Shown here: piece by piece, positions 8,639 through 25,706 of the stretch | Layout: each line of letters starts with the position of its first letter | Numbering within the stretch: the first letter of the stretch is position 1 | Source of the DNA: Phenylobacterium sp. | Lineage (GTDB): Bacteria > Pseudomonadota > Alphaproteobacteria > Caulobacterales > Caulobacteraceae | Direction: 5' to 3' | DNA length: 64,000 bases | NCBI RefSeq assembly: GCF_004297125.1 | Contig: NZ_SCVD01000011.1 | Location: 1,286 to 65,285 of the forward strand | Translations under genes and position numbers: made by a program | The notes under the pieces: model-generated | The model's input: only the letters and a program-made list of their open reading frames with translations | Told to the model about the DNA's origin: nothing | Database searches by the model: none

Positions 8639-8678
8639 CGTGGAAACTCATCGGTTGCATCGCCTTGTGGAAATATAT

Positions 8679-8694
8679 ATGCGAATATATGCAG
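8679..8694. promoter_or_regulatory. Candidate ArsR (SqrR/BigR-type) operator 1
   Basis: ATGCGAATATATGCAG in the AT-rich gap between divergent dioxygenase and tauE genes; same pattern at 12722 and 21140. Confidence 0.55.
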
Positions 8695-8722
8695 ATACAA
8701 GCTCGATCGGTGATCGCCCACC

Positions 8723-9496
8723 ATGTCCGTGTTCATGATCGTCTCGGCCCTGGCGAGCGGCGCCCTGGTCGGCGCCCTCCTTGGGCTGTTCGGCGGTGGC
8801 GGATCGGTGCTCGCGACGCCCCTGCTGCTCTACGTCGTGGGGATCCGGGATCCGCACGTGGCGATCGGCACCTCGGCCGCCGCGGTGGCGGTCAATGCGG
8901 CGATCAGCCTGATGGGTCACGCGCGGGGCGGGCGGGTGAAGTGGCCCTGCGCGACCGTCTTCGCCGGTGCGGGCCTGATCGGCTCCTTCGCGGGCTCCGG
9001 CTTGGCGAAAGCCGTCGAGGGCCAGCGACTGCTGTTGTTCTTCGCGGTCGCCATGGCGGCCATCGCGCTCTCCATGCTTCGTCGCCCGAAGTCGGCTGGC
9101 GATCCCGATGTCCACATCACCCTGCCGCTGATGATGAAGCTCGCGCCGCTGGGCGTCCTGACCGGGCTGGCGGCGGGCTTCTTCGGGATCGGAGGCGGGT
9201 TCCTGATCGTCCCGGGCCTGATGGCGGCCACCGGCATGACCCTGGCCAACGCGGCGGCCTCCTCCCTGCTGTCGGTGTCGGTGTTTGGCGCCGCGACCTC
9301 GCTGAACTACGCCCTGACCGGCCAAGTGAACTGGCCGGTGGCGGCCCTCTTCATCCTGGGCGGCCTCGGCGGGGGAGCGCTCGGCGTGCGCGCGGCCGGC
9401 CTGCTGGCCGGGCGCGTCGTGCTGGCGCGACGCCTGTTCGCCGGGCTGGTCCTGCTGGTCGCCGCTTATGTCGCCTGGCGGGCCGTGGGCTCATAG
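8723..9496 (+). CDS. Sulfite exporter TauE/SafE family protein
   Basis: 257 aa hydrophobic; repeated GLFGGGGSVL / GFFGIGGGFLIVP motifs. Confidence 0.9.
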   Translation: MSVFMIVSALASGALVGALLGLFGGGGSVLATPLLLYVVGIRDPHVAIGTSAAAVAVNAAISLMGHARGGRVKWPCATVFAGAGLIGSFAGSGLAKAVEGQRLLLFFAVAMAAIALSMLRRPKSAGDPDVHITLPLMMKLAPLGVLTGLAAGFFGIGGGFLIVPGLMAATGMTLANAAASSLLSVSVFGAATSLNYALTGQVNWPVAALFILGGLGGGALGVRAAGLLAGRVVLARRLFAGLVLLVAAYVAWRAVGS

Positions 9497-11086: not shown

Positions 11087-12711
11087 GGCAGTCTCACCAC
11101 ATGGTCGGCGGCGGCGGCGAGGGCCTCGGAATGGGTGGCGACGATCACCGTGCGGCCGTGGGCGGCCTGGCGGATGATGGCGATGATTTCACCCTCGGCC
11201 ACAGGGTCGAGATCCGCGGTCGGCTCGTCGAGCAGGAGCAGCGGCGCGGGCTTGAGGAGGGCCCGCGCGAGGGCGAGGCGGCGGCGCTCGCCGCCCGAAA
11301 GCCCCGACCCGCGCTCGTCCAGGCGAAGGTCCGCGCCGGCCTCGCGCCGGGCCAGCGCCGGCCCGAGCCCCACCAGGTCGGCCATCGCCAGCGCCGCCTC
11401 GGGTGACACTCCGGGCGCGGCGGCCATGAGGTTGTCGATCAGCGAGCCCGGCAGGAAGGCTGGCGCCTGGCCCGCCCAGGCGGACAGGCTGGCGAACCCG
11501 CCGGTGTCGGCGAGGCGCAGGCCGCCGACCTCCACGGATCCGGTTTCCAGGGGGGTCAGGCCGAGGATTGCGGCCAGCACTGACGACTTTCCCGATCCGG
11601 TCGGCCCGACGATGGCGGTGACCCGTCCGGCGGGCGCTGTGGCGTCCAGCGGGCCGACGACGAGATCGCCGAAGCGCAGGCTGAGGTTGCGAAGCCGGAC
11701 GTCCGGCGCGGCGTCCGCGGGCAGCGCCAAGGCCAGCGCGGCTGGGGGTGGTGGGATGGCGAGCATGGGTCGCAGGCGCTCGGCGGCGGCTTCGCCGAGC
11801 TGCTTCTCGTGATAGGCGCCGGCCAGCCTCCGCATCGGCGCGTAGAACTCCGGCGCCAGGGCCAGGGCGAAGAAGGCGTGCCGGAAGTCCAGGGTCTCCG
11901 GGACCTTGAACGGCAGCAGCCCCAGCAGCGAGAAGCCGCAGTAGACGGCGACCAGCGCGACCGCCAGAGCGGCGAAGAACTCCAGCCCGGCCGTCGAGAT
12001 GAAGGCGATCCGCAGCACGCCCAGCGTCCGCCGGCTGACCTCTTCCGCCGCTTGGGCGACGCGGGCTGTCTCCTGCCCCTGCGCCTGGAACGCCAGAACG
12101 ACAGGCAGCGCCCGGACCCGGTCGACGAAATGGCCGGAGAGCTGCGCCAGGGCCTCGAACTGGCGGGTGGCCGCCGCCGCGGCCGCGCCGCCGGCTAGCG
12201 CCATGATCGCCGCGAACGGGACCAGGGTGGCCAGCAGGATGGCGGCGCTCACCGGACTGGCCAGGGCCACGGCGCCGGCGATCAGCAGCGGGCCGAGCCG
12301 GGCCTCCAGCGCGGCGGGCTGGAACTGGGTGAAGTAGCCGTCAACCGCGTCGATCTCGTCGACGACGGTCGCGGTCGCCTCGCCCAGGGACGCCCCATCG
12401 CCGCGGCGGCGGCCAAGGACCGCACCCAGGGCCTCGCGCCTCAGCCCCGCCTTGACCCTCAACGCATGGCGCGCGGCCAGGCGGGCGATCGCCCAGGACG
12501 CCGTCGCGCGCACGGCCAGGGCCGCGCCGAGGCCCACGAGTCCGGGCAGGGCGGCGCGCCCGGTCAGCACCCAGGTCAGGCAGAAGGCGAAGGCCGCTGC
12601 GCCGGCGGCGTTGATCGAGGTCAAGGCGAGAAGGGGACCAGTGGGCGCATGAGCCGCCCGTCCACGGAGCGCAAGGAACCTCCTGTTGGCGGCGGTGTCG
12701 GCGGCGCTCAT
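11083..12711 (-). CDS. cydD: Thiol reductant ABC exporter subunit CydD
   Basis: EFFAALAVALVAVYCG...LAPEFYAPMRRLAGAYH; GPTGSGKS, LSGGERRR; divergent from cydA. Confidence 0.88.
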   Translation of the reverse strand: MSAADTAANRRFLALRGRAAHAPTGPLLALTSINAAGAAAFAFCLTWVLTGRAALPGLVGLGAALAVRATASWAIARLAARHALRVKAGLRREALGAVLGRRRGDGASLGEATATVVDEIDAVDGYFTQFQPAALEARLGPLLIAGAVALASPVSAAILLATLVPFAAIMALAGGAAAAAATRQFEALAQLSGHFVDRVRALPVVLAFQAQGQETARVAQAAEEVSRRTLGVLRIAFISTAGLEFFAALAVALVAVYCGFSLLGLLPFKVPETLDFRHAFFALALAPEFYAPMRRLAGAYHEKQLGEAAAERLRPMLAIPPPPAALALALPADAAPDVRLRNLSLRFGDLVVGPLDATAPAGRVTAIVGPTGSGKSSVLAAILGLTPLETGSVEVGGLRLADTGGFASLSAWAGQAPAFLPGSLIDNLMAAAPGVSPEAALAMADLVGLGPALARREAGADLRLDERGSGLSGGERRRLALARALLKPAPLLLLDEPTADLDPVAEGEIIAIIRQAAHGRTVIVATHSEALAAAADHVVRLP

Positions 12712-12721
12712 CGGATCATAA

Positions 12722-12737
12722 ATGCATAATTGCGCAT
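12722..12737. promoter_or_regulatory. Candidate ArsR operator 2
   Basis: ATGCATAATTGCGCAT, perfect ATGC-N8-GCAT arms, in the ~96-bp cydD/cydA divergent gap. Confidence 0.55.
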
Positions 12738-12807
12738 CTTAGAAGATACAGATATTGCGGCGCCGTCGTCGCGGGTGTTCACTGCGGTGAAACTAGGAAC
12801 CTCGGTC

Positions 12808-14376
12808 ATGACCATGGATGTCGTCGAACTCTCCAGGCTGCAGTTCGCCCTGACGGCCATGTACCACTTTCTCTTCGTGCCGCTGACGTTGGGCCTGTCG
12901 TTCCTGCTGGTCATCATGGAGAGCATCTATGTGATGACCGGCCGCCCGATCTGGCGGACCATCACCCGCTTCTGGGCGACCATCTTCGGCATCAACTTCG
13001 TCCTGGGGGTCGCGACCGGCCTTACCATGGAGTTCGAATTCGGGACCAACTGGTCCTACTACTCGCACTACGTGGGCGACATCTTCGGCGCGCCTCTGGC
13101 CATCGAGGGCCTGATGGCCTTCTTCCTGGAAGCCACCTTCGTTGGCCTGATGTTCTTCGGCTGGGAAAAGCTCTCCCGACAGGCGCACCTCTTCGTCACT
13201 TTCATGGTCGCGCTCGGGTCGAACCTGTCGGCTCTGTGGATACTGATCGCGAACGGCTGGATGCAGAATCCGGTCGGCGCGGCGTTCAATCCCGACACCA
13301 TGCGCATGGAGGTGACCAGCTTCCGCGACGTGCTGTTCAACCCGGTGGCCCAGGCGAAGTTCGTTCATACGGTGAGCGCGGGGTACGTCACGGCCTCCGT
13401 CTTCGTGCTGGGGATCTCGGCGATCATGCTGCTTGGCGGCAAGTGGCCACGGGTGGCCAAGCGGTCCTTCGCCGTGGCCGCGTCCTTCGGCCTGGCCGCA
13501 TCCCTCTCGGTCGTCGTGCTGGGCGACGAGAGCGGCTACGCCCTCACCGACAACCAGAAAATGAAGCTCGCGGCGCTGGAAGCCATGTGGGAGACCGAGC
13601 CCGCCCCCGCCGGACTGGCGGCCTTCGGCATCCCTAGCCTGGCCGACCGCAAGACCTACGCCGAGGTGAAGATCCCCTATGTGCTCGGGCTGATCGCCAC
13701 CCGCAGCATCGACAAGCCGGTCTCCGGCATCTTCGAACTGGTGGCCGTCGCCGAGACCCGGGTCGAGAACGGGATCAAGGCCTATGACGCGCTGGAGCGC
13801 CTCAAGGCCTCGCCCCAGGACCTGGTGGCGCGCGCCGACTTCGAGCTCAGCCGCAAGGACCTGGGCTACGGCCTGCTGTTGAAGCGCTATGTCGCCGACC
13901 CGCGCACCGCCGACCGGGCGACCATCCAGAAGGCGGCCTGGGACACCGTGCCGAACGTGCCGGTGATGTTCTGGGTGTTCCGGATCATGGCCGGAATCGG
14001 TTTCCTGCAGATCGCAGTCTTCGCAGCGGCCTTCGTCCTGGTGACGCTCCGCCGGTGCGAGACCAAGTGGATCCTCTGGACCGCGGTCGCCATCATGCCG
14101 TTGCCGTGGATCGCGGCGGAAGCTGGCTGGGTCCTGGCCGAACTGGGGCGTCAGCCCTGGGCGGTGGAGGGCGTCCTGCCGACCTTCCTCGGAGTCTCCA
14201 GCCTGACCGTCGGCCAGCTCTGGACCACGATCATCGGCTTCACCTTGCTCTATGGGGCGCTGGCCGTCGTCGAGGTCGGCCTCATCGTTCGGACCGTCAA
14301 GCGCGGACCCTACGCTCATCACGACCAGCCCGACGGCGGCGCGGCGGCATCGATCCGTCTCGCCCCGGCCGAATAG
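12808..14376 (+). CDS. cydA: Cytochrome bd ubiquinol oxidase subunit I (long Q-loop type)
   Basis: AMYHFLFVPLTLG, AKFVHTV, GDESGY..QKMKLAALEAMW, FWVFRIM, ELGRQPW; start set at ATG after AGGAAC. Confidence 0.96.
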   Translation: MTMDVVELSRLQFALTAMYHFLFVPLTLGLSFLLVIMESIYVMTGRPIWRTITRFWATIFGINFVLGVATGLTMEFEFGTNWSYYSHYVGDIFGAPLAIEGLMAFFLEATFVGLMFFGWEKLSRQAHLFVTFMVALGSNLSALWILIANGWMQNPVGAAFNPDTMRMEVTSFRDVLFNPVAQAKFVHTVSAGYVTASVFVLGISAIMLLGGKWPRVAKRSFAVAASFGLAASLSVVVLGDESGYALTDNQKMKLAALEAMWETEPAPAGLAAFGIPSLADRKTYAEVKIPYVLGLIATRSIDKPVSGIFELVAVAETRVENGIKAYDALERLKASPQDLVARADFELSRKDLGYGLLLKRYVADPRTADRATIQKAAWDTVPNVPVMFWVFRIMAGIGFLQIAVFAAAFVLVTLRRCETKWILWTAVAIMPLPWIAAEAGWVLAELGRQPWAVEGVLPTFLGVSSLTVGQLWTTIIGFTLLYGALAVVEVGLIVRTVKRGPYAHHDQPDGGAAASIRLAPAE

Positions 14377-14388
14377 GGACTCAGGACG

Positions 14389-15537
14389 ATGCACATTCCC
14401 CTCGACTACGAGACACTGCGGGTCATCTGGTGGGGCCTGATGGGCGTGCTGCTGATCGGCTTCGCGCTCACCGACGGCTTCGACCTGGGGGTCGCCGCCC
14501 TGCTGCCCTTCGTCGCCCGCAACGACGGCGAGCGGCGGATGGTGATCAACACCATCGGCGCCACCTGGGAAGGCAACCAGGTGTGGTTCATCCTGGGCGG
14601 CGGGGCGATCTTTGCGGCCTGGCCGTTCGTCTACGCCGTCAGCTTCTCGGGCTTCTACCTGGCGATGTTCGCGGTGCTCGCGGCCCTCATCCTGCGGCCG
14701 GTCGGCTTCAAGTACCGCTCAAAGCGGCCCTCGAAGACGTGGCGGACGGCGTGGGACTGGGCCCTGTTCGTCGGCGGCTTCGTCCCGGCCCTGGTGTTCG
14801 GGGTGGCGGTGGGCAACGTCCTGCAGGGGATTCCCTTCCGGCTCGACGGCGATCTGCGCGCCACCTACACCGGAACCTTCCTCGGCCTGTTCACCCCCTT
14901 CACGCTGGTCTGCGGGCTGCTGTCGGTGGCCATGCTGGTGACCCATGGCGCGGCCTGGCTGACCATCAAGGCTGAACACGGGGCAGTGCGCGACCGGGCG
15001 CGGGCCATTGGCTCCGTCGCCGCGCTCGCGGCCATCGTCCTCTTCGCAGCCGGGTATGCGTTCGTGGCGTTCGGCGGTCTCGGCTTCCGCCTGGACGGCG
15101 CCGTCGATCCAGCCGGCCCGTCCAACCCGCTGCGCGCGGCCGCCGTGGCCGCCCCCGGGGGATGGCTCACCAACTTCGCCACCTATCCGTGGATGTGGAT
15201 CGCGCCCGTCCTCGGCTTCGCGGGCGCGGCCCTGGCCCTGGTGGGCATCCGCGCGGGCCGCGAAGTCCCGGCCTTCGCCGGCTCTTCCCTGTCGGCGCTA
15301 GGGATCATCTCCACCGTGGGGCTCGCGATGTTCCCCTTCATCCTGCCCAGCAGCATCGACCCGAGGTCGAGCCTGACGGTCTGGAACGCGTCGTCCAGCC
15401 ACATGACCCTGTTCGTCATGCTGGTGGTCACCGTGGTCTTCCTGCCGATCGTGCTGGCCTACACCGCCTGGGCTTACAAGGTGATGTTCGGCCGCTCCTC
15501 GGTCGGCGACCTGAACACCAACCCCGATCTCTACTGA
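14389..15537 (+). CDS. cydB: Cytochrome bd oxidase subunit II
   Basis: TDGFDLGV, WEGNQVWFILGGGAIFAAWP, SLTVWNASSS. Confidence 0.96.
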   Translation: MHIPLDYETLRVIWWGLMGVLLIGFALTDGFDLGVAALLPFVARNDGERRMVINTIGATWEGNQVWFILGGGAIFAAWPFVYAVSFSGFYLAMFAVLAALILRPVGFKYRSKRPSKTWRTAWDWALFVGGFVPALVFGVAVGNVLQGIPFRLDGDLRATYTGTFLGLFTPFTLVCGLLSVAMLVTHGAAWLTIKAEHGAVRDRARAIGSVAALAAIVLFAAGYAFVAFGGLGFRLDGAVDPAGPSNPLRAAAVAAPGGWLTNFATYPWMWIAPVLGFAGAALALVGIRAGREVPAFAGSSLSALGIISTVGLAMFPFILPSSIDPRSSLTVWNASSSHMTLFVMLVVTVVFLPIVLAYTAWAYKVMFGRSSVGDLNTNPDLY

Positions 15538-15549
15538 GGAGTCCCGAGC

Positions 15550-15669
15550 ATGTGGTATTTCACCTGGGTGCTTGGCCTGGGCCTGGCGGTCGCCTTCGGC
15601 ATCCTCAACGGCATGTGGCACGAATTCCACCTCGTCGATTCCGGCGACGACGGTGAGGACGACGCGTAA
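15550..15669 (+). CDS. cydX: Cytochrome bd oxidase small subunit
   Basis: Manual translation MWYFTWVLGLGLAVAFGILNGMWHEFHLVDSGDDGEDDA (39 aa) directly after cydB, GAGGAG RBS. Confidence 0.93.
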   Translation: MWYFTWVLGLGLAVAFGILNGMWHEFHLVDSGDDGEDDA

Positions 15670-15723
15670 GCCGAGCGCGCGGCTCTCCCTGCGTCTCGCG
15701 GCCTGAATGGCGACCGGCGAGGT

Positions 15724-16092
15724 TCAAGCCTGGCGGCGGCCGGCGCGGCCTTCGGTCCGGACCTCGCTGGCGCCATAGATGTCGCACAGGGTGTCGAGCA
15801 CCCGCATCGCCGCCGGGTCGTCCAGCCGATAGTAGATGGTCTGCGCCTCCCGCCGGGTGCCGACCAGGCCCTCGGCCCGCATCTTGGCCAGATGCTGCGA
15901 CGTGGTCGATTGGGCCATCTTGGCGTGGTCCGCGAGGGCCTTCACCGATGCCTCTCCCTCGACAAGCCGGCACAGCAGGAGCAGGCGCGGCTCGCTGGCC
16001 AACAGCTTCAACAGGCGCGCGGCGGCCTGAGCGCTGTCCCCCAGCTCGGAGAGTTCGCTGGGCGAGGGGCGGGCGACGAGTGCGGACGTCAT
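15724..16092 (-). CDS. ArsR/SmtB-family regulator, BigR/SqrR-like (copy 2)
   Basis: LKLLASEPRLLLLC...SQHLAKMRAEGLV..RREAQTIYY...LDTLC; Cys in helix 2 and near the C terminus. Start inferred. Confidence 0.88.
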   Translation of the reverse strand: MTSALVARPSPSELSELGDSAQAAARLLKLLASEPRLLLLCRLVEGEASVKALADHAKMAQSTTSQHLAKMRAEGLVGTRREAQTIYYRLDDPAAMRVLDTLCDIYGASEVRTEGRAGRRQA

Positions 16093-16166
16093 CTGCTTAA
16101 TGTAGAAGATGCGCATCAACGATCAAGGCGATGGTGGCCCGCTCGCTCGCCGACGATGCGATGGCG

Positions 16167-19100
16167 CTACGCCGGCTTGCCTCCGCGCTCAACGGCGGTT
16201 GTCGGCCCAGGTGGGCGGCTATCGTCCCTCAGGACGACATAGATCGCCGGGATCACCAGCACGGTCAGCAGGGTGGACGAGGCCAGACCGAACAGCAGCG
16301 AGATCGCCAGCCCCTGGAAGATCGGGTCGGTAAGGATCACCGCCGCGCCGATCATGGCGGCCGCGGCCGTCAGCACGATGGGCTTGAAGCGGATTGCGCC
16401 GGCCTCCAGCAGGACCTCGCGCAAGGGCCGCTCGCCGGTCTGGCTGTGGCGGATGAAGTCCACCAGCAGGATCGAGTTGCGCACGATGATCCCGGCCAGG
16501 GCGATGAAGCCGATCATCGAGGTGGCGGTGAAGGGCGCCCGGAACAGGATGTGGCCGACGACGATGCCCACAAGGGTCAGCGGGATCGGGGTCAGGATGA
16601 CCAGCGGCAGGCGGAAGCTTTTGAACTGGGCGACCACCAGGACGTAGATGCCGAGGATCGCCACGCCGAACGCCGCGCCCATGTCGCGGAAGGTCACCCA
16701 GGTGATCTCCCACTCGCCGTCCCAGAGCACGGTGGGCCGGCTCTCGTCCGTGGGCTGGCCGTGCAGGCGGATGTCGGGCTTGGGGACGCCTGTCCAATCG
16801 CCCTCCTTCAGCGCCTTGTCGACCGCGAGCATGCCGTAGATCGGCGCCTCGTAGGCGCCGGCGAGCTCGCCCATCACCATGTCCAGGTCGCGTCCGTCGC
16901 GGCGGAAGATGTGGGTCGAGCCGGCTTCGGTCGACGCCGTGGCGACTTCGCCAAGTGACACCAGCCGTCCCCCGGCGGGGCCCTGCGACACCGCCACCGG
17001 CATGGCGGCGAGGCCTTCGCCCCAGCTGCGCGCCGATTGCGGCAGGCGCACGGAGATCTCAAGGGGATCGCGACCCTCGCCGCGGTGGGCGTAGCCGACG
17101 ACCTGGCCGCCGAGGGCCGCGGCGATGGAGTCGTAGACGTCCCGGTCGCCGACCTTCAGCGCCTCAAGCCGGTCGCGGTCGGGGACCAGCCGCAGGCCTG
17201 GCCGGGGCTGGCCGTAGCTGTCGTCGATGTCGACGATGTAGGGCACGGAATGGAATGCGGCCTTCACGCGCGTGGCCACCGCGCGCCGCGTCGCCGCGTC
17301 GGGACCGTAGACCTCCGCCAGCAGGGTCGCCATCACCGGTGGTCCGGGCGGCGCCTCGACCACCTTGATCGCCGCGCCCGCGGGCAGGGCGACCTTGGCG
17401 AGCCTTCGGCGCAGGTCGAGGGCGATGGCGTGGCTGTTGCGGCGGCGCTCGCCCTTCTCGGCCAGGGTGACGGAGAGGTCGCCCATCTCCGGCTTGTTGC
17501 GAAGATAGTAGTGGCGCACGAGGCCGTTGAAATTGAACGGGGAGGCCGTCCCGGCATAGGCGTCCACGGCGACGACTTCCGGCAGGGCGCGGGCGATCGC
17601 CGCCGCGTCGCCGAGCGCGCGCTGGGTGGCCTCCAGGGACGTCCCTTCAGGCATGTCGACCACCACCTGCAACTCGGACTTGTTGTCGAAGGGCAGCAGT
17701 TTCACCGTCACCGTCTTGGTGGCGAACATGGCGCAGGCCAGAAGCGTCGCGACGCCGACGGCGATGAGGAAGGTCCAGGCCGACCGGCGGGTGGCGATCA
17801 CGCGGCCCGCGACCTTTCGGTAGATCGCCTCGAGCCGGCCTTCGACATGGGATCCGTGTCCGGCCGCCAGCGTCTTGCGCGCGAAGCGCACCATCAGCCA
17901 GGGCGCGATCACCACGGCGACAAAGAACGAGAAGACCATGGCCGCCGAGGCGTTGACCGGAATCGGCGCCATGTAGGGGCCCATCAGGCCCGAGACGAAC
18001 AGCATCGGCAGCAGGGCGGTGACGACAGTGAGCGTGGCCACCACGGTGGGGTTGCCGACCTCGGCCACGGCCTCGACGGCCGCGTCCACGCGGGTTCGCC
18101 CGTCCGCCATCGCCCAGTGGCGGGCGATGTTCTCGATCATGACGATGGCGTCGTCGACCAGGATGCCGATGGAGAAGATCAGGGCGAACAGGCTGACCCG
18201 ATTGATGGTGTAGCCCAGCAGGTTCGAGGCGAAGAGGGTGAGCAGGATGGTGGTCGGGATCACCACGGCGGTGACCGCCGCCTCGCGCCAGCCGATGGCG
18301 AAGCCGATCAGGACGACGATCGACAGGGTGGCGAGCCCGAGGTGGAAGAGCAGCTCGTTGGCCTTCTCGTTCGCTGTGGCGCCATAGTCGCGCGTCACAG
18401 AGACGCTCAGGCTGTCCGGCAGAAGCGAGCCCTTCAGCGCCTCGACCCGGGCCAGGACGGCCTGGGAGACGACGACGGCGTTGGCGCCCTTGCGCTTGGC
18501 GATCGCCAGGCTGACGGCAGGGGCTTCACTCCAGCCCTGGGCGGTTCGGGCATAGCGCCAGGCGCGGGCCTGATCCTCGCGCGGGCCTTCGACCACCTGG
18601 GCGACGTCGCGGACATAGACGCTCTCGCCCTTGGCGGAGGGCAGGGCGAGCAGGCCGATCTCCGTCGCGTTGGCGAGGGTCCGCCCGGCCGTGACGTCGA
18701 CGGCCTGGCCGCCGTTGCGCACCTGACCGGCCGGGAAGGCGCGGTTGGCCTGGCGGATGGTGTCCATGAGGGCTCCCAGCGACACCCCATGCTGGGCGAG
18801 CCTCGCCGGATCGGGCTCGACGCGGATCTCCTGCGGCCGGCCGCCGACGATGAAGGTCAGGCCCACGTCGTCGACCTTGGTCACTTCGTTGCGCAGCTTG
18901 CCGGCCAGTTCGTGGAGCGCCTGGTCGGTCCATTGCCCGGCGGCGCCGGGCTTTGGCGAGAGGGTCAGCACCAGGCTGGGCACGTCGTTGATGCCACGGG
19001 TCTGGATCAGCGGCTCGGGGATGCCCGCCGGAATCCGGTCGTAGTTCGCGCGGACCTTCTCGTGGATGCGCACCGCCGCGGCGTCCGGATCGGTCCCGAC

Positions 19101-19403
19101 GTCGAAACGCGCGGTGACCATAACCTGGTTGTCGTCGGCGAAGGTGTAGACGTGCTCGACGCCCGAGACGCTCTTCACGATCGTCTCCAGGGGTTTGCCG
19201 ACCAGCTCCACGGCGTCCGGCGCCCGCAAGCCGGGTGCGGAGACCATGATGTCGACCATGGGCACGCTGATCTGAGGTTCCTCCTCGCGGGGGATCGACA
19301 TCAGGGCCAGCAGGCCCACGGCGATCGCCGCCAGCAGGAAGAGCGGCGTCAGCGGCGAGCGGATGGTCGCGCGCGTCAGGCGTCCGGAGAGGCCGAGGTT
19401 CAT
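16167..19403 (-). CDS. RND efflux transporter permease subunit
   Basis: 1078 aa; PREEEPQI.VPMVD, GILVDDAIVMIENI, GIIVRNSILLVDF, RFKPIVLT. Confidence 0.95.
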   Translation of the reverse strand: MNLGLSGRLTRATIRSPLTPLFLLAAIAVGLLALMSIPREEEPQISVPMVDIMVSAPGLRAPDAVELVGKPLETIVKSVSGVEHVYTFADDNQVMVTARFDVGTDPDAAAVRIHEKVRANYDRIPAGIPEPLIQTRGINDVPSLVLTLSPKPGAAGQWTDQALHELAGKLRNEVTKVDDVGLTFIVGGRPQEIRVEPDPARLAQHGVSLGALMDTIRQANRAFPAGQVRNGGQAVDVTAGRTLANATEIGLLALPSAKGESVYVRDVAQVVEGPREDQARAWRYARTAQGWSEAPAVSLAIAKRKGANAVVVSQAVLARVEALKGSLLPDSLSVSVTRDYGATANEKANELLFHLGLATLSIVVLIGFAIGWREAAVTAVVIPTTILLTLFASNLLGYTINRVSLFALIFSIGILVDDAIVMIENIARHWAMADGRTRVDAAVEAVAEVGNPTVVATLTVVTALLPMLFVSGLMGPYMAPIPVNASAAMVFSFFVAVVIAPWLMVRFARKTLAAGHGSHVEGRLEAIYRKVAGRVIATRRSAWTFLIAVGVATLLACAMFATKTVTVKLLPFDNKSELQVVVDMPEGTSLEATQRALGDAAAIARALPEVVAVDAYAGTASPFNFNGLVRHYYLRNKPEMGDLSVTLAEKGERRRNSHAIALDLRRRLAKVALPAGAAIKVVEAPPGPPVMATLLAEVYGPDAATRRAVATRVKAAFHSVPYIVDIDDSYGQPRPGLRLVPDRDRLEALKVGDRDVYDSIAAALGGQVVGYAHRGEGRDPLEISVRLPQSARSWGEGLAAMPVAVSQGPAGGRLVSLGEVATASTEAGSTHIFRRDGRDLDMVMGELAGAYEAPIYGMLAVDKALKEGDWTGVPKPDIRLHGQPTDESRPTVLWDGEWEITWVTFRDMGAAFGVAILGIYVLVVAQFKSFRLPLVILTPIPLTLVGIVVGHILFRAPFTATSMIGFIALAGIIVRNSILLVDFIRHSQTGERPLREVLLEAGAIRFKPIVLTAAAAMIGAAVILTDPIFQGLAISLLFGLASSTLLTVLVIPAIYVVLRDDSRPPGPTTAVERGGKPA

Positions 19404-20431
19404 TTGCTCGGCCCGGCCGGGGTGAGGACATCGCCGGCCCGAAGCCCGGACAGTACCTCGATCGTGTCCGGCGTCGGGCCGGCCGTGGTCTGGATCGGGG
19501 TCTCGGACACAGTCCCGCCTTCGCGGACCAGGCGGGCGTAGTCGACGCCGAACCGCGTCACGGCATAGCGGCGTGGGATCACCAGCGCCCGCCGCTCGCC
19601 GACCTTGATCCTCGCACGCACCCGCTGGCCGATCAGGTCCTGCGGCAGATTGGGGGCGGTGACGTCGGCGGTGACCTGGCCGCCGGTCACCGACGGATAG
19701 ACCTGGCTGATCGTTCCCTGGGTCGCGGCGCCCCGAAGGTCGTCGGCGGCGAGGGGGACGACATCGCCGACCCTGAGCGCGCGCGCCTGGCCTTCCGGCA
19801 GCTCGATACGCACCACCATCGGGCCGGCCGTGATCGTGGCGACGGTCTGGCCGGGCATGACCACGGAGCCCACCGGCACGTCGGCCACCAGCACGCGGCC
19901 GGCGGCCGGCGCCAGGATCGCCCCTTGGGCGCCGAGTTCGGCGCTGGCGCCGCGCTGGGCCCGCGCCGCATTGAGATTGGCGTTGGCCGCCTTGGCCTGG
20001 GCCTCGACCTGGTCCAGGCGCGCCTGGGCGTAGACGCCGTGGGAGAACAGGTCGCGCGTACGGGCGAGATCCGCCTGGGCCCGCGCGGCTTCCGCCGCGG
20101 CGGCGGCCACCTGGGCGTCGAAGGCGCCGGTCTGCAGGGTGAGGCGGTCGTCCTTCACCCGGGCGATCACCTGTCCCTGGCGCACCAGATCGCCTTCCTT
20201 GACGGAGAGAGCGACCAGCACGCCGGAGATGCGGGCGCGGGCCTCGGCCATGTCGCGGGTGGTCAGCGTCCCGGGCACAGGTTTCTCGTCGGCGACGGTT
20301 CGCGCTTGCACCGTCAGGCGCCCGGCCATCGGCGCCGTCTGGGCGACCGGGACGCTCGGTTTGGTGTCTCCGCAGGCGGCGACCAGCAAGGCTACGCCCA
20401 GCGCCGCGATGGTATGGAGCCTCAACGCCAT
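19400..20431 (-). CDS. RND periplasmic adaptor (membrane fusion protein)
   Basis: Lipoprotein-like signal LLVAAC; ARISGVLVALSVKEGDLV lipoyl motif, coiled coil, APAAGRV; overlaps RND start. Confidence 0.92.
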   Translation of the reverse strand: MALRLHTIAALGVALLVAACGDTKPSVPVAQTAPMAGRLTVQARTVADEKPVPGTLTTRDMAEARARISGVLVALSVKEGDLVRQGQVIARVKDDRLTLQTGAFDAQVAAAAAEAARAQADLARTRDLFSHGVYAQARLDQVEAQAKAANANLNAARAQRGASAELGAQGAILAPAAGRVLVADVPVGSVVMPGQTVATITAGPMVVRIELPEGQARALRVGDVVPLAADDLRGAATQGTISQVYPSVTGGQVTADVTAPNLPQDLIGQRVRARIKVGERRALVIPRRYAVTRFGVDYARLVREGGTVSETPIQTTAGPTPDTIEVLSGLRAGDVLTPAGPSK

Positions 20432-20466
20432 GGCCTGCCCTCCCGTGCTTGTGATCCCGACCGAGG

Positions 20467-20796
20467 CTAGCCGGTGACCGTCGGCAGGCCGGCGGCCTTC
20501 CAGGCGGCGAGGCCGCCGGCGAGATGCGTCTCGATGGCCTGGTCGGCCCGGCGGCACTGGTCCACCGCCATGGCCGAGCGCTTGCCGCCGGCGCACTGCA
20601 GCACGATCGTCTTGCCGCCCGCCGCGGGGAGCGCGGCGGGGTCGAAGCTCGACAGCGGCACGTTCAGGGCGCCGGCGATCCGGTCGGCGGCGAACTCGGC
20701 GGGCTCGCGCACGTCGATCAGCAGGATTTCCTGGGCGTCGAGCGCGGCCTTCACCTGCTGCGGGGTGAGGTCCTTGGTCTTGGGGGCGCCGGTCAT
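20467..20796 (-). CDS. Single-domain rhodanese (sulfurtransferase)
   Basis: LIDVREPAEF, active loop CAGGKRS, LAGGLAAWK. Confidence 0.92.
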   Translation of the reverse strand: MTGAPKTKDLTPQQVKAALDAQEILLIDVREPAEFAADRIAGALNVPLSSFDPAALPAAGGKTIVLQCAGGKRSAMAVDQCRRADQAIETHLAGGLAAWKAAGLPTVTG

Positions 20797-20808
20797 GTGG
20801 AGGCTCCT

Positions 20809-21129
20809 TTAGGGCTGCGCGCGGTCGGGGACCGCGCAGAAGAGGCGGGACAGGGTCTCGACCAGAGCGCGGGCCTGGCCGCTCTGCAGGCCGTAGTAGA
20901 TGGTCTGGCCGTCACGACGGGCGGCGACCACGCCGTCCCGGCGCAGCAGGCCGAGGTGTTGCGACGCCAGGGTCTCACGCACGCCCAGCATCTGGGCGAG
21001 CGCACCTACCGACTGCTCGCCCTCGATCAGGCTGCAGACGATCATCAGCCGATGCGGGTTCGCCAGCGCCTTGAGCAGGGCGCACGCGTCGTCGGCCGAG
21101 GCTTTCATGGCGCGGACGTCTAATTTCAT
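20809..21129 (-). CDS. ArsR/SmtB-family persulfide-sensing regulator, BigR/SqrR-like (copy 1)
   Basis: LKALANPHRLMIVC...SQHLGLLRRDGVVAARRDGQTIYY...LSRLFC; the MIVC/LFC Cys pair matches SqrR/BigR. Confidence 0.9.
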   Translation of the reverse strand: MKLDVRAMKASADDACALLKALANPHRLMIVCSLIEGEQSVGALAQMLGVRETLASQHLGLLRRDGVVAARRDGQTIYYGLQSGQARALVETLSRLFCAVPDRAQP

Positions 21130-21139
21130 AGTTGCGTAT

Positions 21140-21155
21140 ATGCGTCTATATGAAT
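21140..21155. promoter_or_regulatory. Candidate ArsR operator 3
   Basis: ATGCGTCTATATGAAT, 11-26 bp upstream of the regulator's start, between it and sqr. Confidence 0.6.
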
Positions 21156-21286
21156 ATTTAGTCAATCATCGTGAGGTTCACCGTAGCCGCGCCGATGGCC
21201 CGGGGACCTGATCTGCATCAAGGCCAGCGGGCGAACACGGGCGGATGCTCGCGGTGAGCCGTCCTGGGCCATCGAGGAGACCGACT

Positions 21287-22567
21287 ATGGCCAAGCCGCG
21301 CATTGTGATTCTGGGCGCAGGATTGGGCGGCGCGATCGCCGCCTTCGAGGTCAAGGACGCCGTCGGCGAGAAGGCCGAGGTGAGGGTCGTGTCGCAGGGC
21401 GACACCTTCCACTTCGTCCCGTCAAACCCCTGGGTCGCGGTCCATTGGCGCAAGCGCGGCGCCATCGAAGTCAAGCTGCCGCCGGTGTTCAAGAAGCGCG
21501 GCATCGGCTTCACCGGGGTCGGCGCCAAACACGTCTCGCCGGCTCAGAACCAGCTGGAGCTGAACGACGGGACAGTCGTCGACTACGACTACCTGATCAT
21601 CGCCACCGGCCCGGACCTGGCCTTCGACGAGATCGCAGGGCTGGGGCCGCACGGGGGGTTCACCCAGTCGGTCTGCCACGTAGACCATGCCGAGGCCGCC
21701 GCCGCCGCCTTCGACCGATTTGTCGAGAACCCGGGCCCGATCGTCGTCGGCGCGGTCCAGGGCGCCTCGTGTTTCGGCCCGGCCTACGAGTTCGCGATGA
21801 TCCTCGACACCGAACTGAAGCGCCGCAAGATCCGCGACAAGGTCCCGATGACCTTCGTCACCTCGGAACCCTACGTGGGCCACCTGGGCCTCGACGGGGT
21901 CGGCGACACCAAGGGACTGCTCGAAAGCGAGATGCGCGAGCGCCACATCAAGTGGATCACCAACGCCAAGGTGACCGCCGTCGAGGCGGGCCTGATGCAT
22001 GTCGACGAGATCTCCGACGACGGCTCGGTCAAGCAGACCCACGACCTGCCCTTCGCCTATTCGATGATGCTGCCGGCTTTCCGCGGCGTCGCCGCGGTGC
22101 GCGGCGTCGAAGGGCTGACCAACCCGCGCGGCTTCGTCGTCATCGACAAGCACCAGCGCAATCCGACCTTCCCCAATGTCTTCGGCCTCGGCGTCTGCGT
22201 GGCCATCGCGCCGACCGGCAAGACCCCGGTGCCGGTGGGCGTGCCGAAGACCGGCTTCATGATCGAGAGCATGGTCACCGCCATCGCCCACAATATCGCC
22301 CAGCTCGTCGACGGCCAGCCCACAACCCACGAAGCCACCTGGAACGCCTTCTGCCTGGCCGACTTCGGCGACGGCGGCGTGGCCTTCGTCGCCCAGCCGC
22401 AGATCCCGCCGCGCAACGTCAACTGGTCGGCCAGCGGCAAGTGGGTCCACCTCGCGAAGGTGGCCTTCGAGAAATACTTCCTGGCCAAGATCCGGCGGGG
22501 CGAGAGCGAGCCCTTCTACGAGAAGCTGGCCCTGGAGGTGATGGGGCTGCGGAAGATCAAGGGCTGA
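21287..22567 (+). CDS. sqr: Sulfide:quinone oxidoreductase, type I (SqrA-like)
   Basis: GAGLGG FAD fold; TQSVCHVDHA, ASCFGPAYE, PKTGFMIESM, CLADFGDGG (three conserved Cys). Confidence 0.92.
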   Translation: MAKPRIVILGAGLGGAIAAFEVKDAVGEKAEVRVVSQGDTFHFVPSNPWVAVHWRKRGAIEVKLPPVFKKRGIGFTGVGAKHVSPAQNQLELNDGTVVDYDYLIIATGPDLAFDEIAGLGPHGGFTQSVCHVDHAEAAAAAFDRFVENPGPIVVGAVQGASCFGPAYEFAMILDTELKRRKIRDKVPMTFVTSEPYVGHLGLDGVGDTKGLLESEMRERHIKWITNAKVTAVEAGLMHVDEISDDGSVKQTHDLPFAYSMMLPAFRGVAAVRGVEGLTNPRGFVVIDKHQRNPTFPNVFGLGVCVAIAPTGKTPVPVGVPKTGFMIESMVTAIAHNIAQLVDGQPTTHEATWNAFCLADFGDGGVAFVAQPQIPPRNVNWSASGKWVHLAKVAFEKYFLAKIRRGESEPFYEKLALEVMGLRKIKG

Positions 22568-22570
22568 GCC

Positions 22571-22765
22571 ATGCGCCAGTTCGCCTGCCCCGCCTGTGGC
22601 GCGGCCAATCGCACGCCGGCCGGCAAGGACCCGCTGTCGGCGAAATGGAACGGCCGGCTCGTGGCTCGAACGGCGGGCCTGACGAACACCGCTCAGATCG
22701 TCGCCTGGACGCGCCAGGCCCTCGCCCAGGCGTCGTCCGGGGCGGCTTCAGGAGATCAATCATGA
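22571..22765 (+). pseudogene. Thioredoxin-2 (TrxC)-like gene with in-frame internal deletion
   Basis: 64 aa: CPACGAANRTP..DPLSAK joined directly to NGRLVARTAG...QIVAW; second CxxC and the WCxPC site are absent. Confidence 0.7.
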
Positions 22766-22965
22766 CCCTCGACCGTATGGTCTTCGTCTTCGCCGGCTTC
22801 GTGGTCCTGCTCAGCGTCGCCCTCGCGCAGCTCGTGAATCCCTGGTGGATCGCGTTGGCGGTCTTCGCCGGCCTCAATATGATCCAGGCGGCGTTCACCG
22901 GTTTCTGTCCGGCTGCGATGATCTTCAAGAAGCTGGGATTCAAACCCGGGGCCGCCTTCCGGTGA
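22762..22965 (+). CDS. DUF2892 (YgaP-like) membrane protein
   Basis: 67 aa, MTLDRMVFVFAG...QAAFTGFCPAA; AGGAGA RBS. Confidence 0.9.
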   Translation: MTLDRMVFVFAGFVVLLSVALAQLVNPWWIALAVFAGLNMIQAAFTGFCPAAMIFKKLGFKPGAAFR

Positions 22966-24227
22966 TTCGGGTGCGGGCCATCGTCGCCCTCAGCCTGGCG
23001 GCCTGCCTCGTCGCACCGCAGGTCGCGGCGGCGCTGTCGCTGCCGGAAGCGATCGTACTCGCTCAGCGCGGCAACCCCGGCCTCGCACAGGTCAGGGCGC
23101 TGGCGGACGCCGCCGAGGCGCGACTGGTCCAGGCGAGGTCCGGACGCCTCCCCAGTGTCACCCTCTCCGCCGACGCCGGACAGGGAACCACCGACCTGGG
23201 CGGCTTCTTCGGCTTCGGTAGAGTTGATGTTTCGCCGCGAGGCGCCGCCCTGGAGCTGCGCCAACCGATCTTCACCGGCGGCGCCGTCAGCGCCGCGGTT
23301 GTCCGCGCCAGGGAGGCGCGGGACGCGGCCATGGCCCAGGCGGGCGGCGTCCGCTCGCTGCTGACGGCCCAGGCCGCCGAGGTCTACGCAGCGGTCCTCG
23401 GCGCCGATGAGATCCTGCGGCTCCACGAGGCGCAGGTGCGCCAGACCAGCGAGATCGAGCGCCAGGCCGGCCTTCGCTTCAAGGGTGGCGAGGTCGCCAG
23501 GACCGATGTGGCCCAGGCCCAGGCGCGCCTGGCGCAGGCCCAGGCGGACCTGGCGCGGGCGCGCGGCGACGCGGCCAGGGCGAGGGCGCGGTTCCAGTCC
23601 GTCGTGGGCGCAGCGGCGGAGGGGCTTGAGCCCCTGCCGCTCCCGCCGCCCACGCCCACCTCGCTCAACGAGGCTCTGGCCAGCGCGGAGCGAGCCAGCC
23701 CGACCTTGCTGGCCGCGCAGGCTGCGGCGCGCGCGGCCGAGGCCGGCGTCCGTTACGCCCGGGCGGAGCGGCTGCCGAACCTGGCGCTCGCCGCGACGGC
23801 CAGCACCACGCGAGACAAGTTCTTCCCGGGCTACAGGGCCGATGACGTCACGGTGGGCGTGAAGGGGCGCTGGACCCTGTTCGCCGGCGGCGCGATCGAG
23901 GCCCGGGTCGGTGAGGCGCGCGCCGGCGCGCGCGAAGCGCAGGCCGCCCTGGCGGCCGCCCGCGCCCAGGTCCGCGAGACCGTCATCGGCGCCTGGGAAG
24001 ATGTCCAGACGTCGCGCGCCCTGGTCGCGGCCGCCGACGACCAGGCGACGGCGGCGGCCAGCGCGCTCGACAGCGTGCGCAACGAAGTCCGCGTCGGCCA
24101 GAAGCCCACGCTCGACCTCCTCGACGCCGAGCGCGAGGCGCTGGCGGCGCAGAGCGCCGTGGTTTCGACCCGGGGCGGCGCCGTCGCGGCCGCCTATCGC
24201 CTGAACGCGCTCCTCCACGTCGAATAG
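22962..24227 (+). CDS. TolC-family outer membrane protein
   Basis: GTG start overlapping the previous stop; signal peptide, LSLPEAIVLAQRGNP, LRQPIFTGG, GQKPTLDLLDAERE. Confidence 0.9.
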   Translation: MIRVRAIVALSLAACLVAPQVAAALSLPEAIVLAQRGNPGLAQVRALADAAEARLVQARSGRLPSVTLSADAGQGTTDLGGFFGFGRVDVSPRGAALELRQPIFTGGAVSAAVVRAREARDAAMAQAGGVRSLLTAQAAEVYAAVLGADEILRLHEAQVRQTSEIERQAGLRFKGGEVARTDVAQAQARLAQAQADLARARGDAARARARFQSVVGAAAEGLEPLPLPPPTPTSLNEALASAERASPTLLAAQAAARAAEAGVRYARAERLPNLALAATASTTRDKFFPGYRADDVTVGVKGRWTLFAGGAIEARVGEARAGAREAQAALAAARAQVRETVIGAWEDVQTSRALVAAADDQATAAASALDSVRNEVRVGQKPTLDLLDAEREALAAQSAVVSTRGGAVAAAYRLNALLHVE

Positions 24228-24314
24228 CCCGGCCGACCCGCTGCGGACCCTCGCGAACCCGCATCGGCTGCGGATCACGGGCGCGCTCAGCTTCTAAGGG
24301 GGCTTCGAATTCCC

Positions 24315-24731
24315 TCAGGCCACCGCGTCGGCGACACGCCGGCGGATTGTTCCTTCCAGGACAACCGCGGCGGCGACGGTGTTCGAGATCGTCCCGTACT
24401 TGCGGACGTTGCGGTGCAGGAGTTCCAAGCGCCCATCGCTCTCGTCGGTGTCGACGATCAACTCGTAGTCCACGCGCAGGATGAGCGGTGGCGAATCCTG
24501 GCGCGCCGCCCTGAGCCGGACCTCCACACCGCGAAGCTCGAACTTCAGGAGCGGCGTGACCCGCTCGATGCCCTTGATCATGCAGGCGGCGATCGCGGCG
24601 AGGAACAGTTCGACCGGGTTGAACGCATCCCGACGGCCAGTGACGTCCGTGTCCATGACAAGAGCCGCATCCTTCGATCGCGCGAGGCTTCCATGCGCAT
24701 CGACGCGTTCCGCTGTGACCCGATATTCCAT
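24315..24731 (-). CDS. OsmC-like protein
   Basis: FNPVELFLAAIAAC motif; second Cys position reads KYGTISNT. Confidence 0.82.
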   Translation of the reverse strand: MEYRVTAERVDAHGSLARSKDAALVMDTDVTGRRDAFNPVELFLAAIAACMIKGIERVTPLLKFELRGVEVRLRAARQDSPPLILRVDYELIVDTDESDGRLELLHRNVRKYGTISNTVAAAVVLEGTIRRRVADAVA

Positions 24732-24872: not shown

Positions 24873-25706
24873 CTATCGCCGACGAGCCGGAGGTGTGAGG
24901 CTGGCGACCAGGTAGGCGCCCACCAGCTCGACGTAGCGCCCCGGATTGTCGGGCCTGGCGTCGCGGCGATCGAGACCGCCAACGCCGATCACCACCTCCG
25001 GCGCACCGTCGCGGCAGATCGGCCAGAAATCGAACGTGGACGTGTCGAACGGATAGGCGTCGCCGTGGAGCGGCTTGCGGTTCTCCGCCGCCCATTGCGC
25101 GGCCTCCAGGTCGACAGGCGACGGGGCGGCCCGGCCTCCGAGGCCCGCGACCTCCAGGCGGCCTTCCTGGCGGACCAACACCGCCGCCGGCGCCTGAAAG
25201 ATGCGTGAGAGCGCCGTCGCGGCCGCGAGGCTCACGTCGGCGGCCGGCGCGGATTGAACCACCAGATGCGCCAGGCCGTGGAGCGCGTCCGCGCGCTCCG
25301 CCGCCGTCTTCGCGTCGATTGCGCGGCGGCGAGACTGCGCCGCCACGGTGCTGACGATTCCGGCGATCACAAGGAGGAGGGTGGCCGCCCAAACATCGGA
25401 CGAACCTGCGATCCGCAGCGAATAGTAGGGGACGGTGAAGAAGAAGTCGAAGGCCAGGACGCCCAACACCGCCGCCGCCAGGGCAGGTCCCCACCCGAAC
25501 GCCGCCGCCGCGACTACCACGGGAAGCACGAAGATCAGCGTGACATTGGGGGCCGATATCAGGTTGTCGGCCAGAAAGGCCAGCAGCGTCGCCGCTCCAA
25601 CCAGGGCAAGCGCGATGGCATAGCCGGCCCAATGCCTAGGTCGCGCGGCCGCGGGCGCTCCCGGACCGGAGACGATCGGATCGACCTCGGCAAGGCGTCC
25701 AGACAT
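24873..25706 (-). CDS. DUF4118 (KdpD-like membrane sensor domain) protein without kinase domain
   Basis: NVTLIFVLPVVVAA..FGWGPALAAAVLGVLAFDFFFTVPYYS followed by a GAF-like segment; start inferred. Confidence 0.8.
   Translation of the reverse strand: MSGRLAEVDPIVSGPGAPAAARPRHWAGYAIALALVGAATLLAFLADNLISAPNVTLIFVLPVVVAAAAFGWGPALAAAVLGVLAFDFFFTVPYYSLRIAGSSDVWAATLLLVIAGIVSTVAAQSRRRAIDAKTAAERADALHGLAHLVVQSAPAADVSLAAATALSRIFQAPAAVLVRQEGRLEVAGLGGRAAPSPVDLEAAQWAAENRKPLHGDAYPFDTSTFDFWPICRDGAPEVVIGVGGLDRRDARPDNPGRYVELVGAYLVASLTPPARRR

Follow-up and report, generated by a model that had tools for sequence, protein, structure and literature searches.

A divergently encoded RND pump with a cysteine-bearing DUF2892 partner in a sulfide-stress gene island: a candidate sulfane-sulfur exporter under persulfide-type control

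We analyzed a 64-kb stretch of Phenylobacterium sp. DNA with a G+C content of ~70% (here called the window; all coordinates are positions within it) and concentrated on a tripartite efflux pump of the RND superfamily whose genes are interleaved with those of sulfur enzymes. The proteins of the window find their best matches in Phenylobacterium and Caulobacter. The pump is considered here as a candidate exporter of sulfane sulfur. Protein families were assigned by Pfam, NCBIfam, and PDB searches. Two operons depart from a shared gap. The genes for an ArsR-type repressor, a rhodanese, a periplasmic adaptor (membrane fusion protein [MFP]), and the RND permease are read leftward, and those for a sulfide:quinone oxidoreductase (SQR), a thioredoxin relic, a DUF2892 protein, and a TolC-family channel are read rightward, as follows (lengths in amino acids [aa]; TM, transmembrane).

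16167-19403, minus strand: RND inner-membrane permease, 1078 aa, 'PREEEPQISVPMVD' family
19400-20431, minus strand: periplasmic adaptor (MFP) with a lipoprotein-type N terminus (LLVAAC)
20467-20796, minus strand: single-domain rhodanese, 109 aa (Pfam Rhodanese, E = 9e-15)
20809-21129, minus strand: ArsR1, two-cysteine repressor of the BigR/SqrR/HlyU type, 106 aa
21130-21286: divergent gap, ATG to ATG, exactly 157 bp
21287-22567, plus strand: type I SQR, 426 aa
22571-22765, plus strand: thioredoxin-2 (TrxC) relic, 64 aa
22762-22965, plus strand: DUF2892/YgaP-like protein with two TM helices, 67 aa
22962-24227, plus strand: TolC-family outer-membrane channel

Several of these genes run into one another. 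The MFP stop and the RND start overlap within 4 nt, the TGA of the trxC relic overlaps the ATG of the DUF2892 gene (ATGA), and direct reading of the next junction revealed that the DUF2892 TGA and the GTG start of tolC overlap as GTGA. The first-pass annotation had described the divergent layout, a gap of ~157 bp, and this last overlap. All of the elements were found where it had placed them, and the DUF2892/tolC overlap (ATGA or GTGA) recurs in ~10 of 16 relatives with tolC at the equivalent position. The MFP scored 156.5 bits against TIGR01730 (RND_mfp; cutoff, 94.9 bits) and also matched HlyD_D23 and HlyD_3, and the TolC-family protein scored 253.3 bits against TIGR01844 (cutoff, 225.15 bits) with two OEP stretches by PF02321. 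SQR aligned over its full length with the SQR of A. ferrooxidans (3SZ0, E = 2.6e-147) and also matched that of Aquifex (3HYV, E = 3e-104); its catalytic cysteines are in register (SVCHVD, GASCFGP, and AFCLAD), which identifies it as a type I SQR.

Is this arrangement kept in other genomes? In a scan of one genome per species, we collected 80 RND loci (75 at 57 to 92% identity and 5 at 44 to 46%), 56 of them with full flanks. The six-frame open reading frames (ORFs) of the 80 loci were searched with the proteins of the window, and the zone 3.5 to 10 kb from the RND gene served as an internal control. The frequencies among the 56 full-flank loci were as follows.

MFP: 100% (56/56), adjacent to the RND gene
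DUF2892: 77%; 40 within 3.5 kb versus 3 at 3.5 to 10 kb
ArsR (two-cysteine): 59%; 31 within 3.5 kb versus 2 at 3.5 to 10 kb
SQR (type I): 46%; 26 within 3.5 kb versus 0 at 3.5 to 10 kb
Rhodanese: 30%; 16 within 3.5 kb versus 1 at 3.5 to 10 kb
TolC: 14%

The gene arrangement is not down to chance, because DUF2892, SQR, ArsR, and rhodanese genes cluster within 3.5 kb of the RND gene across these 56 species-level loci. Pumps of the REEEPQI type had been said to recur near rhodanese, DUF2892, and ArsR genes, and gene-neighborhood analysis had been named as a check; the counts bear this out and extend it to SQR, many gene orders, and several phyla. Reciprocally, of 11 DUF2892-centered metagenome loci that extend at least 4.5 kb to either side, 8 carry the pump and 9 carry SQR. 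The 13 full-flank loci lacking DUF2892 had only unrelated flanking genes and thus represent genuine stand-alone MFP-RND pairs.

Since DUF2892 is kept beside MFP-RND in at least 30 distinct gene orders, the linkage itself appears to be under selection rather than inherited as one arrangement. The adjacency could instead be historical, the genes having traveled in one mobile island with no functional coupling. The island around the cluster (described below) is indeed bounded by unrelated genes, with TonB-dependent receptors on one side and CarD/ferredoxin/helicase housekeeping genes on the other. However, the genes remain linked in at least 30 gene orders and in different phyla, often with stop and start codons that overlap, and few of them lie farther than 3.5 kb from the pump gene. 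On these comparative data, a purely historical adjacency is very unlikely.

The association extends to distant relatives of the pump. In Aromatoleum (43% RND identity), the order is MFP-RND-DUF2892 with a 4-bp overlap, and in Leptospira (39%), a regulator of the CsoR/CstR family is followed by DUF2892, an outer-membrane efflux protein (OEP), and the RND gene. On a metagenome contig at 37% identity, an ArsR gene with the cysteine pair, MFP, RND, DUF2892, an ETHE1-type persulfide dioxygenase (PDO), and TauE stand in a row. A member at 31% identity, of the 'PKQYNPEI' type, has MFP-RND-DUF2892 with two rhodanese genes nearby. Two further members were accompanied by ArsR, one of them also by DUF2892, and DUF2892 was found as well at an NC10 locus and a deltaproteobacterial locus. 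Taken together, these homologues indicate that the DUF2892-RND pairing is old and broad, although not universal, and that it persists to ~31% RND identity. Two unrelated regulator families that contain persulfide sensors, the ArsR/SqrR type and the CsoR/CstR type, accompany the pump.

The repressor encoded beside the pump in the window, ArsR1, aligned over its full length with HlyU, BigR (3PQJ), SqrR (6O8K), and YgaV. In the alignment, its Cys32 (RLMIVCSL) and Cys98 (RLFCA) occupy the positions of BigR Cys42 and Cys108, and the same cysteine pair is kept in ~37 pump-linked homologues. Its score against the NCBIfam BigR equivalog NF040642 was 93.9 bits, below the cutoff of 155 bits, and we therefore call it BigR/SqrR-type rather than BigR; by this model, ArsR1 is a relative of BigR and not an orthologue.

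The DUF2892 protein scored 45.6 bits against PF11127 (cutoff, 25.3 bits) and aligned with the TM domain of YgaP (2MPN) over residues 3 to 60, including the G-F-C position. Its Cys49 lies in T-G-F-C-P at the end of TM2. The first-pass annotation had noted a conserved GFCP cysteine; among 57 pump-linked homologues, the cysteine is invariant (57/57) and the exact G-F-C-P motif is found in 52, and an Asn and a Gln inside TM2 are also kept. In 23 sequences, the tail that follows the cysteine contains 74 K/R versus 11 D/E, and the loop between the helices is not basic. Because the basic tail follows the cysteine, the positive-inside rule places this residue at the cytoplasmic face. The rhodanese has the active-site loop CAGGKRS and no signal peptide, and its PDB matches include the rhodanese domain of YgaP and PDO-rhodanese fusions. 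Since one protein matches the rhodanese domain of YgaP and the other its TM domain, the pair looks like a split YgaP. DUF2892 is barely mentioned in the searchable literature; it turns up in five papers, of which none connects it with RND pumps, and the pairing appears to be unreported so far.

The trxC gene of the cluster has decayed. The only Pfam match of the 64-aa thioredoxin ORF is Zn_ribbon_Thio2. In frame, it retains one half of the zinc ribbon, with the first CxxC, and the C-terminal helix, within the final ~25 residues. Some 85 residues have been lost, WCGPC among them, and the ORF has neither the complete zinc ribbon nor the active site of TrxC. Five relatives carry an intact TrxC (~150 aa) at the equivalent position, and alignment with these shows the internal deletion. 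In R. capsulatus, TrxC is the reductant that resets SqrR (PMC10044876), and deletion of the SqrR-regulated rhodanese or TrxC prolongs sqr induction. Because this published off-switch of SqrR is decayed here, the strain from which the window derives may reset its sulfide response more slowly or use another thioredoxin.

We then considered the permease itself. It matched PF00873 (ACR_tran, E = 9.8e-143) over residues 19 to 849 and a second stretch, and its PDB matches span residues ~21 to 1060 of MexK, TriC, MexB, and AcrB, as expected of a full-length RND architecture. Similarity to these structures is low: the nearest, MexK and TriC, scored only about 206 bits, and AcrB-type pumps scored 140 to 206 bits. 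The best NCBIfam subfamily scores were 408.6 bits (NF033617) and 324 bits (NF000282), where the cutoff of both is 1250; the permease thus reaches about one third of any curated subfamily cutoff, and these models place it in the superfamily but outside every curated subfamily. Relatives, sought among 1.8 billion representative sequences, form a continuum in which the N-terminal motif P-[RK]-E-E-[EDN]-P-Q-I-x-V-P is found in nearly all full-length sequences down to ~33% identity; below this lies the 'PKQYNPEI' sister group. TM4 reads GILVDDAIVMIEN, the HAE1 pattern, and each of the proton-relay residues, D417 and D418 in TM4, R975 and N976 in TM10, and R1005 in TM11, is kept by at least 93% of 103 family members, R975 being an Arg in place of AcrB K940 (an equivalence assigned by motif recognition, not structural alignment). 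By these sequence features, the pump belongs to an RND family of its own, which is widespread and in which the HAE1-type proton relay is intact.

Further motifs characterize the family. Across the 103 sequences, four arginines of the porter domain (R630, R635, R653, and R665) are invariant, and the alignment also shows the pair E40/E41. The stretch of residues 630 to 665 and 683 to 689 (window 17337-17516 and the 17445-17465 region, minus strand) includes an invariant P-P-G-P-P motif. A W-D-G-E-W...F-R-D motif stands just before TM8, and M474, M478, and M489 lie in the TM5-TM6 region. We found no Rosetta-stone fusions in the family; the long members (1287 to 1404 aa) carry only an unrelated C-terminal extension. 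In these members, at 42 to 44% identity, the extension comprises 200 to 300 residues, and in one of them it contains a helix-hairpin-helix domain, unexpected on an RND permease.

These features bear on a possible role in metal export, the substrate being thiophilic metal ions or those metal-sulfide complexes that are toxic under sulfide. The authors of a study on Azospira read H2S-induced RND pumps as metal-sulfide exporters, the ArsR and CsoR families hold many metal sensors, and the window RND has a weak match to the NCBIfam CusA/CzcA model TIGR00914. That match (261.9 bits), however, is far under the cutoff of 701 bits. The TM4 signature of HME-RND pumps is DFG-DGA-VEN; TM4 of the window RND reads SIGILVDDAIVMIEN and, with its HAE1 pattern, conforms neither to this signature nor to the CusA type. 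In the 103-sequence alignment, the periplasmic domain has no conserved cluster of Met, Cys, or His and shows the four invariant arginines instead. On the regulatory side, ArsR1 has the cysteine pair of BigR and SqrR, and the CsoR-like regulator of Leptospira has two cysteines and, by the CsoR fingerprint, a Tyr where copper sensors have their His ligand. Metal export is therefore improbable.

The pump cluster forms the core of a ~17-kb sulfide-stress island, from about 7694 to 24731, whose other genes are listed below (MBL, metallo-beta-lactamase).

7694-8638, minus strand: PDO-like MBL protein, type II (Pfam Lactamase_B; PDO-type motif GTARCDFPGG)
8723-9496, plus strand: TauE sulfite exporter (Pfam TauE), divergent from the PDO-like gene
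9491-12711, minus strand: cydDC
12808-15537, plus strand: cydAB
15550-15669, after cydAB: cydX/YbgT-like minigene, 39 aa
15724-16092/16116, minus strand: ArsR2, second two-cysteine regulator (HTH_5 and metalloregulator subfamily matches)
24315-24731, minus strand: OsmC-family protein, convergent with tolC

The cydAB product is cytochrome bd oxidase, a type generally regarded as sulfide insensitive. Five relatives likewise have cyd genes near the pump or its ArsR. A gene for a DUF4118 protein (KdpD-like sensor TM domain) follows the OsmC gene (24873-25700, minus strand), and after another 8 kb to the right there is a second TauE paralogue (32600-33361, minus strand). The few AT-rich stretches of the window coincide with the promoter gaps of the island.

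Three candidate regulatory elements were located in the gap between arsR1 and sqr.

21137-21152: candidate operator box TATATGCGTCTATATG, overlapping the arsR promoter
21165-21137, minus strand: arsR promoter, -35 TTGACT (21165-21160) and -10 CATATA (21142-21137), with the ATG 7 nt downstream
21208-21221, plus strand: FNR/FixK-like box CTGATCTGCATCAA, ~70 bp upstream of sqr

A generic promoter and terminator scan of the window gave nothing above chance, and the conserved promoter and operator emerged only when relatives were compared. The architecture TTGACtATATATTCG-N7-CGTATATACGCAAGT-ATG, that is, a -35 element, an imperfect palindrome over the -10 element, and an ATG 7 nt on, is kept 5' of the arsR or rhodanese gene in loci from four orders or groups (Caulobacterales, Sphingomonadales, Bradyrhizobium, and Acetobacteraceae). 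It suggests that arsR1 (21127-21165, minus strand) is probably autoregulated; its transcript is probably leaderless, because the -10 element ends only 7 nt before the ATG both in the window and in these relatives. The box TATATGCG-NN-TATATG has exactly two copies in the 64 kb (0.02 expected), the second at 8676-8691 in the PDO/TauE gap, 12 kb from the first. A single repressor probably controls both the arsR1/sqr and the PDO/TauE loci.

ArsR2 is of a different type. Of its cysteines (LLLC and TLC), the second lies four residues, or one helical turn, earlier than that of BigR. Both the BigR-like type and this shifted-second-cysteine type accompany the pump elsewhere, the latter at the equivalent position in ~14 loci. 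A 10-mer, TGCGCATCTT, is common to the cydDC/cydA gap (12731-12740) and the region upstream of ArsR2 (16106-16115); its presence before both suggests that ArsR2 may control the cyd genes and itself. One-mismatch matches to TTGAT-N4-ATCAA occur only twice in the window (0.24 expected), 5' of sqr and 5' of cydA (12611-12624), and the box upstream of sqr is also kept in one relative. This hints at low-oxygen co-control of sqr and cyd, in agreement with NnrR/FixK2 control of sqr in B. diazoefficiens, where an annotated sqr-trxC-DUF2892 operon belongs to the NnrR regulon (PMC6710368). The public sequencing runs that contain the window sequence are DNA metagenomes (groundwater, soil, and aquatic) only, with no RNA among them.

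The gene content of the island also allows a different cargo, a small sulfur oxyanion or pseudohalide (thiosulfate, sulfite, or thiocyanate) arising from rhodanese, PDO, or SQR, with DUF2892 acting as in the proposed YgaP thiocyanate route. The invariant R630, R635, R653, and R665 of the porter domain would suit an anion, and rhodanese plus DUF2892 resembles a split YgaP. These arginines, however, could equally bind polysulfide dianions or be structural, small hydrophilic anions are not a known substrate of any RND pump, and sulfite already has its own exporter in the island, TauE, whose gene shares the operator box. We consider oxyanion export very improbable.

How does the cluster relate to published work? 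That such pumps have no established substrate, as had been stated at the outset, is right: we found no paper that assigns a substrate to one, although the association itself has been published. Li et al. (2025) reported RND pumps among the neighbors of sulfane-sulfur-responsive ArsR regulators and suggested a role in transport of sulfur compounds (PMC12423496). Their supplementary tree contains an 'RND' clade that includes SqrR of R. capsulatus, itself encoded beside an RND transporter (PMC12423496). The adjacency of SqrR-type regulators and RND genes is thus already known. The supplements of the 2023 SqrR follow-up study do not list the neighbors of sqrR or rcc01557. Papers on pyrite, thiocyanate, and selenite that combine RND and sulfur terms were set aside, as they concern other pumps (CzcA-, CusA-, and MexEF-type). 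In Azospira suillum PS, the operon Dsui_3440-3443 (hypothetical protein, RND, SQR, and MFP) rises with H2S from a log2 expression of ~1 to 4 to ~8.6 to 10.6, and Bar-seq under sulfide oxidation flagged no other operon.

Polysulfide and elemental sulfur, the products of SQR-based sulfide oxidizers, become toxic at high concentrations, and in many species they are eventually found outside the cell. We know of no exporter that carries polysulfide or elemental sulfur across the envelope. In SqrR and BigR, polysulfide bridges the two cysteines of the repressor. We read the region as the core of a persulfide-controlled sulfide-stress module that would work as follows. SQR would convert sulfide to sulfane sulfur; by analogy with SqrR and BigR, polysulfide would bridge the ArsR1 cysteines, and both operons would be derepressed. 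Judged from its context, the RND pump would then clear surplus sulfane sulfur from the envelope through TolC, the candidate substrates being polysulfide, S8, and membrane-partitioning per- or polysulfides of low molecular weight. The cytoplasmic share would leave as sulfite by way of PDO and TauE. DUF2892 would be a small inner-membrane accessory subunit of the pump, a role suggested by context and by analogy with AcrZ, and its cytoplasm-facing cysteine could accept sulfane sulfur from rhodanese and then feed or gate the pump.

We give this model of sulfane-sulfur export as a whole a probability of roughly 0.45 and hold it tentatively, as the best-supported guess about a substrate that sequence cannot show. 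The narrower statement, that the pump is persulfide regulated and that DUF2892 is its dedicated partner, is in our view highly probable. A more far-reaching version would make DUF2892 an obligate RND subunit whose cysteine, loaded by rhodanese or low-molecular-weight persulfides, delivers per- or polysulfide into the pump. The pump would then be the first RND exporter whose substrate is inorganic and relayed covalently, and it would supply the route that is still missing for zero-valent sulfur out of the Gram-negative cell, but we consider this version unlikely.

Several observations weigh against sulfane-sulfur export. SQR is missing from 54% of the full-flank loci, and in 12 of the 56, mostly from Rhodobacterales, MFP-RND stands without any sulfur gene nearby. 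Persephonella and two others are among the distant members that lack DUF2892; Persephonella and three other distant members have OEP-MFP-RND only. No cysteine is conserved in the RND permease in the 103-sequence alignment, nor is any Cys or Met cluster. In Azospira, deletion of the whole operon left the rate of perchlorate-dependent sulfide oxidation unchanged, and the authors favored metal-sulfide export. The Azospira and R. capsulatus pumps are, moreover, only putative members of this RND family. In a search with a Rhodocyclales member, the best 120 matches were all at least 76% identical (Aromatoleum, Thauera, and Zoogloea), and none came from Azospira. The main difficulty concerns topology. 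Substrates normally enter RND pumps from the periplasmic side or the outer leaflet, but the DUF2892 cysteine (as predicted) faces the cytoplasm, to which the rhodanese and the TrxC relic also belong. The hand-over route is therefore not straightforward, and because the RND has no conserved cysteine, a covalent hand-over would have to end at DUF2892.

Some of these points would suit a general exporter of hydrophobic or amphiphilic stress compounds (organic polysulfanes, damaged lipids or quinones, and by-products of sulfide stress) that is merely co-regulated, with DUF2892 serving SQR or rhodanese. The 12 loci without a sulfur gene fit such a pump, as do the DD motif in TM4 and the nearest structures (MexK, TriC, and AcrB-like), which are those of the HAE1 multidrug type. 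DUF2892 is also found as often beside sqr, in an sqr-trxC-DUF2892 unit, as beside the pump. However, DUF2892 stays with the RND gene where SQR is absent, namely, in Aromatoleum, Leptospira, and three further contigs of distant members and in at least 18 alphaproteobacterial loci, often with overlapping codons. The pump has recruited regulators from two unrelated families known to include persulfide sensors, and the RND family scores far under every curated multidrug subfamily cutoff. A general stress exporter is in our estimation rather unlikely.

The system is thus a tripartite RND pump with a previously unremarked cysteine-bearing partner and persulfide-type control. A widespread RND family under persulfide-type sensors and with a cysteine micro-protein is a concrete, genetically tractable candidate for a sulfur exporter, and it makes the question of sulfane-sulfur efflux directly testable; the novelty is tempered by the SqrR-RND adjacency already in the literature. 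If sulfane-sulfur export is correct, it would provide a function for PF11127/DUF2892, extend the RND pumps by a substrate class and a type of accessory subunit that are both new, and explain why genes for SqrR-type regulators and RND pumps are so often adjacent. If the pump is instead a general stress exporter, it still forms, together with SQR, TrxC, rhodanese, PDO, TauE, and cytochrome bd, a conserved regulon for sulfide stress.

Among known systems, Dsui_3440-3443 of Azospira resembles the cluster in combining a hypothetical protein, RND, SQR, and MFP in one H2S-induced operon; the likeness is one of gene content, and Dsui_3441 is only a putative member of the RND family and Dsui_3440 only a possible DUF2892 protein. 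The SqrR (Rhodobacter capsulatus) and BigR (Xylella/Agrobacterium) regulons share with the window a two-cysteine ArsR repressor, with its cysteines at the positions of BigR Cys42 and Cys108, that controls sqr, rhodanese, TrxC, PDO, and TauE-type genes, and the SqrR gene of R. capsulatus adjoins an RND transporter gene. To our knowledge, no study has tested what an RND pump does in these regulons. The window differs from them in that the pump genes share the operon of the repressor, tolC is in the sqr operon, trxC is decayed, and there is a further regulator, whose cysteine is shifted. The E. coli pair YgaV-YgaP consists of an ArsR-type regulator, to which ArsR1 is structurally homologous, and a membrane-anchored rhodanese, whose TM domain was the founding member of PF11127. 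In the window, in contrast, the rhodanese and the TM domain each have a gene of their own, one in either operon, in the company of an RND pump and SQR, neither of which is found at the E. coli ygaVP locus.

Two RND systems with small dedicated partners offer further parallels. CusCFBA likewise pairs an RND pump, under a stress-specific regulator, with a small protein that hands over a thiophilic substrate. CusF, however, is a periplasmic metallochaperone and DUF2892 is a membrane-embedded protein with a predicted cytoplasm-facing cysteine, and the HME-type TM4 and methionine relay of CusCFBA are missing from the window RND. AcrAB-TolC with AcrZ of E. coli is, like the system described here, a tripartite HAE1-type pump with a very small inner-membrane protein genetically dedicated to it, although the window RND is only distantly similar to AcrB-type pumps. 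AcrZ has a single TM helix, no functional cysteine, and a gene elsewhere on the chromosome, whereas DUF2892 has two TM helices, an invariant cysteine, and a gene that is usually co-operonic with the pump, to whose RND component it would, by analogy with AcrZ, bind.

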